From Octopus vulgaris (Eukaryota), in assembly GCA_951406725.2 (NCBI GenBank), contig OX597827.1, forward strand, positions 67,084,001 through 67,148,000: DNA of 64,000 nt, given 5' to 3'. The position numbers were made by a program, and so were the translations under genes. The notes under the pieces were generated by a model that searched no databases, was not told the origin of the DNA, and was given only the letters and a program-made list of their open reading frames with translations. Shown here piece by piece: positions 35,316 to 37,390 of the stretch; positions within the stretch are counted from its first letter, which is position 1, and each line of letters begins with the position of its first letter.

Positions 35316-36159
35316 AATGTATATGTGTATGTGTCTGTATATCTGCGTGTGTAATTCTTACAGTGTTAGAGGTATATGCATGCGTAGACGGTATAAGTGC
35401 GTGTCTGCGGAGGTGTCTCCATACACAAGCAGTCACACAAATAAAGATGCAGTCGTATACACAACAAATGTTCATCATATGAATGTGAACTACGGGCAAT
35501 ACAAGTTATTCGTGGTTACTCGTTGGGTGCTTTTATTGAAACACTGGAACGTCTCGTAAGTGAGATATATATATATATATATATATATATATATATATAT
35601 ATATATATATATATATATATATACACATATATACATATATACAATATACATATATATGTAATTATGTGTACATGTATAAGAATACAAAAATGCGACAGGT
35701 GACAACAAAACTGTCAGAGAGTTGGATGATAAATAAAGGTACATGATAAAAAAGAGGACGGGTCATTTGGAGATTTCTTTCGTCAGTCGAGTTCCAGATT
35801 ATCTCAGCAGTTTCAGCTGGTTAAAATTCGATGTGTATACATACATACATACATGCACACACACACACACACGCAAACACACACACACACACACACACAC
35901 ACACACACACACACACACACACACACACACATATATATATATATATATATATATATATATATATATATAAATTATTGCATTATATAAAAGGGCTTAGTAA
36001 AATAAATTACTTCGCCGCATACTGAACTCATTAGAAATAGCAGCTAAAAAACTTTTTAAAGCTATTTCTAATACTTAAAGAAAATCTCTCTCATATATAG
36101 CGTTTGCTTAATTCAACTCACAAAAGTTTGGGGGTAAGGACATTAAAAAATCAAATGCT

Positions 36160-36230
36160 AAGGTTATTTGAGTACGTACGTTTCAAGATTAGTCAAAACA
36201 ACATTTCTCTCTTCAGCTCAGAAATTCCTT
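36160..36230 (-). ncRNA. Minimal type I hammerhead ribozyme (mirror copy)
   Basis: Exact reverse complement of 37028-37098. Confidence 0.8.
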
Positions 36231-37027
36231 GGTTTGGATTTGGAAACACTGAAAGTAAGAACATACCCTTTCGAAGATCCGCTCTTAACTACCAGTGCCA
36301 ACAAACCCAAAATAAGCAAGTGAATCATTTCTGTTCTCCCCTTTCCACCAGCGTGGGTTAAAATCATCAAACGCTATGCTTATTTCGGTAAAATCCGAAG
36401 CATTAATTAGAGGGAGATTAATTATAATTTCAACAATTGAGGGTAAAATTAATTAATTATTAATCAATTTCACCAAGTGTTCAGTATGCAAAGGGACCAT
36501 TTAAGGCGAATTCAAATTATTACATTATATAAAAGGGCTTAGTAAAATAAATTACTTCGCCGCATACTGAACTCATTAGAAATAGCAGCTAAAAAACTTT
36601 TTTAAAGCTATTTCTAATACTTAAAGAAGTTTCTTTAAGTATTAGAAATAGCTTTAAAAAAGTTTTTTAGCTGCTATTTCTAATGAGTTCAGTATGCGGC
36701 GAAGTAATTTATTTTACTAAGCCCTTTTATATAATGTAATAATTTGAATTCGCCTTAAATGGTCCCTTTGCATACTGAACACTTGGTGAAATTGATTAAT
36801 AATTAATTAATTTTACCCTCAATTGTTGAAATTATAATTAATCTCCTCTAATTAATGCTTCGGATTTTACCGAAATAAGCATAGCGTTTGATGATTTTAA
36901 CCCACGCTGGTGGAAAGGGGAGAACAGAAATGATTCACTTGCTTATTTTGGGTTTGTTGGCACTGGTAGTTAAGAGCGGATCTTCGAAAGGGTATGTTCT
37001 TACTTTCAGTGTTTCCAAATCCAAACC

Positions 37028-37098
37028 AAGGAATTTCTGAGCTGAAGAGAGAAATGTTGTTTTGACTAATCTTGAAACGTACGTACTCAAATAACCTT
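37028..37098 (+). ncRNA. Minimal type I hammerhead ribozyme
   Basis: TGAG(37038)-CTGAAGA(37042-48)-GAGA..TCTT stem II-GAAA(37074-77)-C-GTAC-GTA-CTCA; palindromic stem III ACGTACGT; GUA cleavage after 37085; extended stem I AAGG/CCTT and ATT/AAT. Confidence 0.8.
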
Positions 37099-37390
37099 AG
37101 CATTTGATTTTTTAATGTCCTTACCCCCAAACTTTTGTGAGTTGAATTAAGCAAACGCTATATATGAGAGAGATTTTTTTTAAGTATTAGAAATAGCTTT
37201 AAAAAAGTTTTTTTAGCTGCTATTTCTAATGAGTTCAGTATGCGGCGAAGTAATTTATTTTACTAAGCCCTTTTATATAATGTAATAATTTGAATTCGCC
37301 TTAAATGGTCCCTTTGCATACTGAACACTTGGTGAAATTGATTAATAATTAATTAATTTTACCCTCAATTGTTGAAATATATATATATAT

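Follow-up and report, generated by a model that had tools for sequence, protein, structure and literature searches.

A head-to-head, hammerhead-bearing 545-bp repeat in octopus DNA, probably a recent insertion of a non-autonomous Penelope-type retroelement

What kind of element, copied by which machinery and from which template, leaves two nearly identical arms of a non-coding, ribozyme-bearing repeat joined head to head? We addressed this question for positions 35969-37378 of a 64-kb stretch of Octopus vulgaris DNA (the window, meaning the whole of the DNA analysed), for which a preliminary description had proposed either a retrozyme or a Penelope-derived element.

Geometry of the palindrome and its repeat unit

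A repeat search delimited 35969-37378 as a head-to-head inverted repeat with 2 nt between the arms, which meet at 36629-36630; position 36629 is a single base without a match to the unit. The right arm (36630-37378, forward strand) is 749 bp long and the left, inverted arm (35969-36628, reverse strand) is 660 bp long. They show 5 differences in 662 aligned columns, namely three 1-nt indels in homopolymer runs, one C/T difference within a T run, and one T/C difference near the left end. The period of each arm is 545 bp, giving 1.21 units on the left and 1.37 units on the right. The 5′ points of the arms coincide to within 1 nt, and the 3′ end of the left arm falls 87 nt short of that of the right arm, leaving an extension in the right arm only (37292-37378, forward strand) that may be analogous to the one-sided tail of Penelope elements. 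Both arms run into (TA)n, on the left at 35931-35968, with (CA)38 before it, and on the right at 37379-37395, and the two flanks are probably a split target microsatellite. These data bear out two earlier claims, that the arms are nearly identical with a 545-bp period and that they end in (TA)n at different positions of the unit. No unique target-site duplication was visible at either flank of 35969-37378, and the outer ends offer 2-3 nt of possible microhomology.

Several other repeats accompany the palindrome. A 226-nt direct duplication with 1 mismatch (37377-37955, bracketed by (TA)n) begins exactly at the right end of the element; it may be connected with the insertion or stem from microsatellite slippage or the assembly. 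No further copy of the 545-bp unit occurs within the 64-kb window. A 184-bp SINE-like unit occurs at 21069-21802 in four copies arranged head to tail (88% matches; no Rfam match at the gathering score) and is taken to resemble an abundant octopus repeat. The reverse strand at 19487-19951 contains a 155-aa frame with a DUF6451 match (E = 7e-9), presumably the C-terminal remnant of an RTE-type LINE.

The repeat unit, taken as 36630-37174 on the forward strand, has a GC content of 32.7%. The ORF listing contains no sense frame of more than 51 codons in the arm or the unit, in agreement with its earlier designation as non-coding. Folded as a circle, the unit has a predicted energy of -149.5 kcal/mol compared to -106.0 ± 6.0 kcal/mol in 60 shuffles (z = -7.2), and the predicted fold of the arm is similarly displaced from its shuffles (z = -7.8). 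Family variants do not favour the predicted global fold, since 15 of the 40 variants listed break a pair against a null mean of 16.7 (P = 0.32), and a covariation test on the predicted circle was null. Three hairpins are predicted on the forward strand at 36640-36685, 36687-36780 and 36785-36817, within the last 200 nt before the 3′ end, and on the strength of these folds 36640-36818 is a candidate recognition region for a helper reverse transcriptase. Another long predicted hairpin (36940-37030) lies directly upstream of the hammerhead motif and carries several of the family-minority alleles of the window. A TATATAT box at 37159-37165 precedes the unit position found at the palindrome centre by 10-16 nt and is a candidate promoter element; a TATA-like motif has been described in rotifer pLTRs.

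A type I hammerhead with a palindromic helix III

Across the 64-kb window, a generic descriptor for type I hammerheads matched exactly twice, at 37042 on the forward strand and at 36216 on the reverse strand. The right-arm motif (37028-37098, forward strand) has its core C3-A9 at 37042-37048, helix II at 37049-37052/37070-37073 with a possible 3-bp extension, G12-A15.1 at 37074-37077, and a palindromic helix III at 37077-37084. Helix I is formed by 37038-37041/37086-37089 plus 37028-37031/37095-37098, and the predicted cut falls after 37085. An identical hammerhead occupies 36160-36230 of the left arm on the reverse strand, where the predicted cut lies between 36173 and 36172. The core consensus of the type (CUGANGA / GAAA / UH around helices I, II and III) is present. 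The pair 10.1-11.1 is G.U, not the usual G-C, and across the family this position is U.U in 76% of the depth of X1, one of the public sequencing runs considered below; U.U at the same place has been described for the axolotl hammerhead (PMC7229834). Chance occurrence of the motif was gauged with 20,000 dinucleotide shuffles of the unit, in which the descriptor matched 43 times, 9 times with helix II as well, and never with the palindromic helix III added. Rfam gave no hammerhead match by E-value (among the matches listed) or by gathering score, and returned microsatellite and hairpin noise only. 

For the monomer, the best predicted structure is not the hammerhead but an alternative that is more stable by 6.5 to 6.9 kcal/mol. 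The earlier statement that each arm carries an intact hammerhead is therefore correct for the sequence core, which is complete in both arms, but not for the predicted fold of the monomer. Pairing of the 8-nt palindrome between two copies is predicted at -9.8 kcal/mol. An unfavoured monomer combined with palindrome pairing fits the weak, dimer-dependent activity reported for the hammerheads of Penelope-like elements (PLEs) (PMC4209133), as well as the protein-assisted cleavage of the anole Poseidon motif (PMC11167929). These predictions suggest that a lone monomer of the hammerhead probably has no activity and that cutting would take place in a dimer, via the palindromic helix III, or with the help of a protein.

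A multi-copy family and its probable 3′ end

We found the unit in 20 of the 24 public sequencing runs listed (from 10 studies and under 4 organism labels, none on record as RNA). Four of the runs (X1, X2, X4, and X7) were aligned on one permuted unit of the left arm, yielding 3666, 251, 46, and 7 contigs, respectively, whose identity to the unit spans from below 90% to above 99%; X1 may come from the source sample. The unit belongs to a large, diverged multi-copy family. Contig depth gives no copy number, and the hundreds to thousands of copies that we infer are to be read with this in mind. At 7 of 7 sites checked, both arms carry the same family-minority letters, for example one that accounts for 1.5% of X1 depth at 36292.

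Family variation was also compared with the hammerhead, using the 40 of 58 substitutions that were listed, so that the test of core conservation is partial. Seven of these fall in the hammerhead span: N7 and N17 (both A to U and both at allowed positions), position 10.1, two in loop II, and the helix I bulge with its neighbour. Helix III, inner helix I and the 11 bases of the core are all free of listed substitutions. For the listed substitutions, this joint sparing has P of about 0.04, which becomes 0.014 when three helix II pairs are added; the core alone is spared with P = 0.29.

The contigs also bear on where the element ends. One X4 contig exits the unit at 36427 (the equivalent of 37378) into (TA)n, as the right arm does, and three X4 contigs and one X7 contig exit 13 nt earlier, at 36440, into AT-rich sequence; the contigs come from two studies. 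These are among 21 loose ends listed; 115 more exist, making the 3′-end map partial, and none of the 21 is long enough to test for an ORF. Depth rises across this 3′ boundary by 14.5-fold in X4, 3.2-fold in X1, and 3.4-fold in X2, with no rise in X7, and the X1 and X2 depth swings elsewhere in the unit are as large as their 3′ step. The position of the palindrome centre is read through by 2 of the 32 pieces listed under a 31-letter rule, namely X4 record 17 and X7 record 25. The latter (492 nt, 5 substitutions, 2 gaps) also continues past the 3′ end into the start of the next unit, which means that an ORF-less head-to-tail unit exists under another organism label. It looks as though the family has a preferred 3′ end at about 37378 and the centre is a 5′ truncation point with no family boundary. 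The right arm then consists of a 5′-truncated, pLTR-like upstream copy of 203 nt (36630-36832) followed by a whole monomer (36833-37378, bounded according to the likely 3′ end of the family), and the left arm mirrors the right one without its last 87 nt. One candidate origin for the unmatched central base is reverse transcription of a cap, and in that case the start site would be fixed; the contigs that read through the centre give no sign of a boundary there. The centre junction itself was not among the joints listed from the four runs, an absence that is uninformative because contigs drop rare variants.

Three other signals in the contigs were set aside. A joint that goes back 545 nt in 4 of 4 runs reflects only the cut point of the query. 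An opposite-strand joint between 36075 and 36568 in X1, considered as a second head-to-head junction, is probably the unit's own hairpin aligned both ways. The end of X7 record 25 at the predicted cut site (36172), considered as a trace of cleavage, is explained by a polymorphism at 36173, and records 27 and 28 bridge the site. Separately, X7 record 26 (1238 nt) shares only 23 nt of the unit's first hairpin (36031-36053) before continuing differently, and possibly represents a related family.

Origin of the insertion and comparison with known systems

The reading that we prefer, with a probability of about 0.7, is a recent insertion of a non-autonomous, ORF-less, retrozyme-type PLE derivative made in trans by a PLE reverse transcriptase (RT) and GIY-YIG endonuclease. 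A PLE protein would bind a head-to-tail transcript of the 545-nt unit, either a linear multimer or a hammerhead-processed circle. The endonuclease would nick the (TA)n tract and reverse transcription would start within the RNA at the family-preferred position 37378, about 290 nt past the hammerhead cut, both of which fit the data. Copying would then have exceeded one unit and stopped at an arbitrary point, 36630, as laid down in the right arm. The product may have primed itself and been copied back, so that the mirror arm would share both the 5′ point and the minority alleles of the first arm. In the sequence, the mirror arm meets the opposite side of the (TA)n tract 87 nt early, and this leaves a one-sided tail.

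In its partial tandem, its inverted 5′ copy with a palindromic junction, its tail on one side only and its (TA)n target, the locus matches the published anatomy of PLE insertions, which comprises partial tandems, an inverted 5′-truncated copy, a tail at one end, and a (TA)n bias (PMC8557442). The 3′ end at an AT-rich or (TA)n target is shared by five X4 and X7 contigs. Palindromic junctions of PLEs have been read as self-priming, and pLTR sequences suffice for mobilisation in trans (PMC3846280); in vitro, initiation is internal, at two sites that bracket the tail, and takes place on AT-rich nicks (PMC11167929). PLE hammerheads on opposite strands 100-700 bp apart have been described, as have variants with a small palindromic helix III (PMC4209133). 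The 87-nt tail is longer than the published 30-40 nt, which counts against a PLE origin. Fold-back copying is favoured because the stopping points of the two arms, at a position where other copies continue, differ by no more than 1 nt; this is what fold-back would give and would be unlikely for two independent truncations. The shared minority alleles also fit fold-back, though two RNAs from one master copy would give the same result. The preliminary description had taken the different arm ends to argue against fold-back; they exclude only an artefact at the level of the read, given that self-primed fold-back with a one-sided tail is the published Penelope pattern and that the shared 5′ point favours a biological fold-back.

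Whether the template was circular is a narrower matter within the preferred reading, and we consider only tentatively that it was a circular RNA of 545 nt, produced through cleavage and ligation by the hammerhead as in a strict retrozyme. Such a model has been proposed (PMC4209133; PMC7229834) and agrees with the seamless head-to-tail unit, the arms of more than one unit, the low GC content, and the strong predicted self-pairing of the circle. It has to contend with the single hammerhead per arm and with a monomer fold that is predicted to disfavour the active form. Moreover, one PLE reconstituted in vitro used mainly uncut RNA and hammerhead mutants still inserted (PMC11167929), and 1 of 9 Xenopus dimers cleaved in vitro (bioRxiv 10.64898/2026.07.22.740005). 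A linear tandem transcript with internal initiation (PMC11167929) explains arms longer than a unit equally well. It is unlikely that there is no separate non-autonomous family and that the locus represents only the doubly truncated end, made up of pLTRs, of an ordinary Penelope with an ORF: PLE hammerheads are mostly solo motifs of truncated copies (PMC4209133), but both arms and X7 record 25 agree in the junction of 3′ end and unit start, and a chance truncation would not be shared.

An assembly artefact around a genuine unit, with a fold-back read joining two loci or with polishing that homogenised the arms, would account for the near-perfect symmetry and for differences mostly in homopolymers; both junctions lie within microsatellites, the near-perfect 226-nt duplication adjoins the right end, and the centre junction is absent from the joints listed for the four runs. 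We regard this as improbable, because the mirror stops 87 nt short and enters a different flank where a fold-back read would have mirrored the flank too, 2 of the 5 arm differences are substitutions, and palindromic structures of this kind are documented for PLEs (PMC3846280). Local instability, in the form of the tandem duplication at 37377-37955, and the hairpins near the 3′ end could instead point to a later duplication and inversion of DNA by hairpin- or microsatellite-driven repair, or else the unit could be a rolling-circle DNA element or satellite with an incidental hammerhead. Both are very unlikely, given that the inverted copy holds element sequence only and no flank, that the family variants listed spare the hammerhead core, and that the anatomy matches PLE insertions.

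No helper ORF came to light in the window, which counts against a PLE-mobilised insertion: the arm has no sense frame above 51 codons, and hence no ORF with RT and GIY-YIG domains, so that the element is not an autonomous PLE, and the 150 longest of the 203 non-repetitive frames in the window gave 0 RT or GIY-YIG Pfam matches. The 30 recently active Penelope families listed for octopus (PMC13282606) are possible helpers. With the octopus calibration of the same source, in which a distance of 0.09 equals 25 million years, the arm divergence would correspond to about 1 million years or less, a figure that gene conversion would bias. The small divergence and the multi-copy family support the earlier view of a young, ORF-less, hammerhead-bearing retroelement of the Penelope or retrozyme kind. 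The choice between the two is probably no either/or, as a 2026 preprint derives the non-LTR retrozymes of vertebrates from PLE pLTRs (bioRxiv 10.64898/2026.07.22.740005).

Pattern scans for relatives found 0 in viral contigs, 0 in metagenomes (with the hammerhead pattern) and 0 in prokaryote genomes; 10 metagenome loci retrieved with a 19-mer were all chance matches of 19-23 nt. The available text of the literature consulted, PMC6962438 and PMC8967140 included, contains no description of such a family in cephalopods, and the giant squid genome has 235 Hammerhead_1 matches, without this context as far as that text goes (PMC6962438).

Each separate feature of the insertion is already known and the architecture has been described previously. 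How PLEs build tandem and inverted ends has been called unresolved (PMC8557442; PMC11167929), and mobilisation of retrozymes by PLEs has been argued from co-occurrence and pLTR phylogeny. An ORF-less hammerhead unit that bears all the marks of PLE insertion together supports the link between PLEs and retrozymes, and at 545 nt the unit is short enough to be used as a template in vitro, offering a compact case in which to study the copying of such elements. A bolder and more doubtful proposal is a high-copy, recently active cephalopod circular-RNA retrozyme whose insertions bear every Penelope mark, and in which a helper RT would roll round a 545-nt circle from a fixed internal start and self-prime the mirror arm. 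If true, the locus would directly document, by its structure, the mobilisation of retrozyme circles in trans by Penelope machinery, and it would offer a 545-nt substrate on which the formation of PLE tandems and palindromes could be tested.

Among known systems, Octopus Naiad PLEs share the (TA)n insertion preference, which is listed for both Octopus families, but Naiad_Ovul has no full hammerhead and is entered as "no pLTR" (PMC8557442 supplement); 0 of 4 short motifs of the unit occur in the available text of that supplement, where a match interrupted by a line break or a cut run could have been missed. The non-autonomous Chlamys elements, MRC1 among them, are ORF-less PLE derivatives that form pLTRs and head-to-tail copies, but belong to a green algal clade without canonical hammerheads (PMC8557442). 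The motif resembles the PLE hammerhead variants of PMC4209133 in its 4-bp helix I, extendable helix II, palindromic 15.2-16.2 region, and occurrence in opposite-strand pairs, and differs in the absence of a conserved G10.1-C11.1 pair and in the distance of about 870 bp between the two motifs. Like metazoan non-LTR retrozymes (PMC7229834), the family is multi-copy and has a non-coding head-to-tail unit, low in GC and a few hundred bp long, with strong predicted self-pairing and a type I hammerhead with a short palindromic helix III. The unit is longer than the 150-450 bp retrozymes of that study and within the 51-972 bp range of the 2026 preprint (bioRxiv 10.64898/2026.07.22.740005). Unlike those retrozymes, each arm at 35969-37378 has fewer than two units and one hammerhead, where the preprint reserves the term active for runs of two or more units in succession, every one of them with a complete hammerhead; helix I is short, the base of helix II is G.U (family majority U.U), and a circular RNA form is hypothetical for this element. 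The available text of PMC7229834 and of the preprint makes no mention of an inverted arrangement for retrozymes. The closest correspondence in architecture is with endonuclease-plus PLE insertions (PMC3846280; PMC8557442), which combine a partial tandem, an inverted 5′ copy, a palindromic junction, a hammerhead in the repeat, an extension at one end only, and an AT-rich or (TA)n target. The octopus insertion departs from them in having no ORF between the repeats, a repeat that is the whole 545-bp unit, a tail of 87 nt instead of 30-40 nt, and no visible unique target-site duplication.
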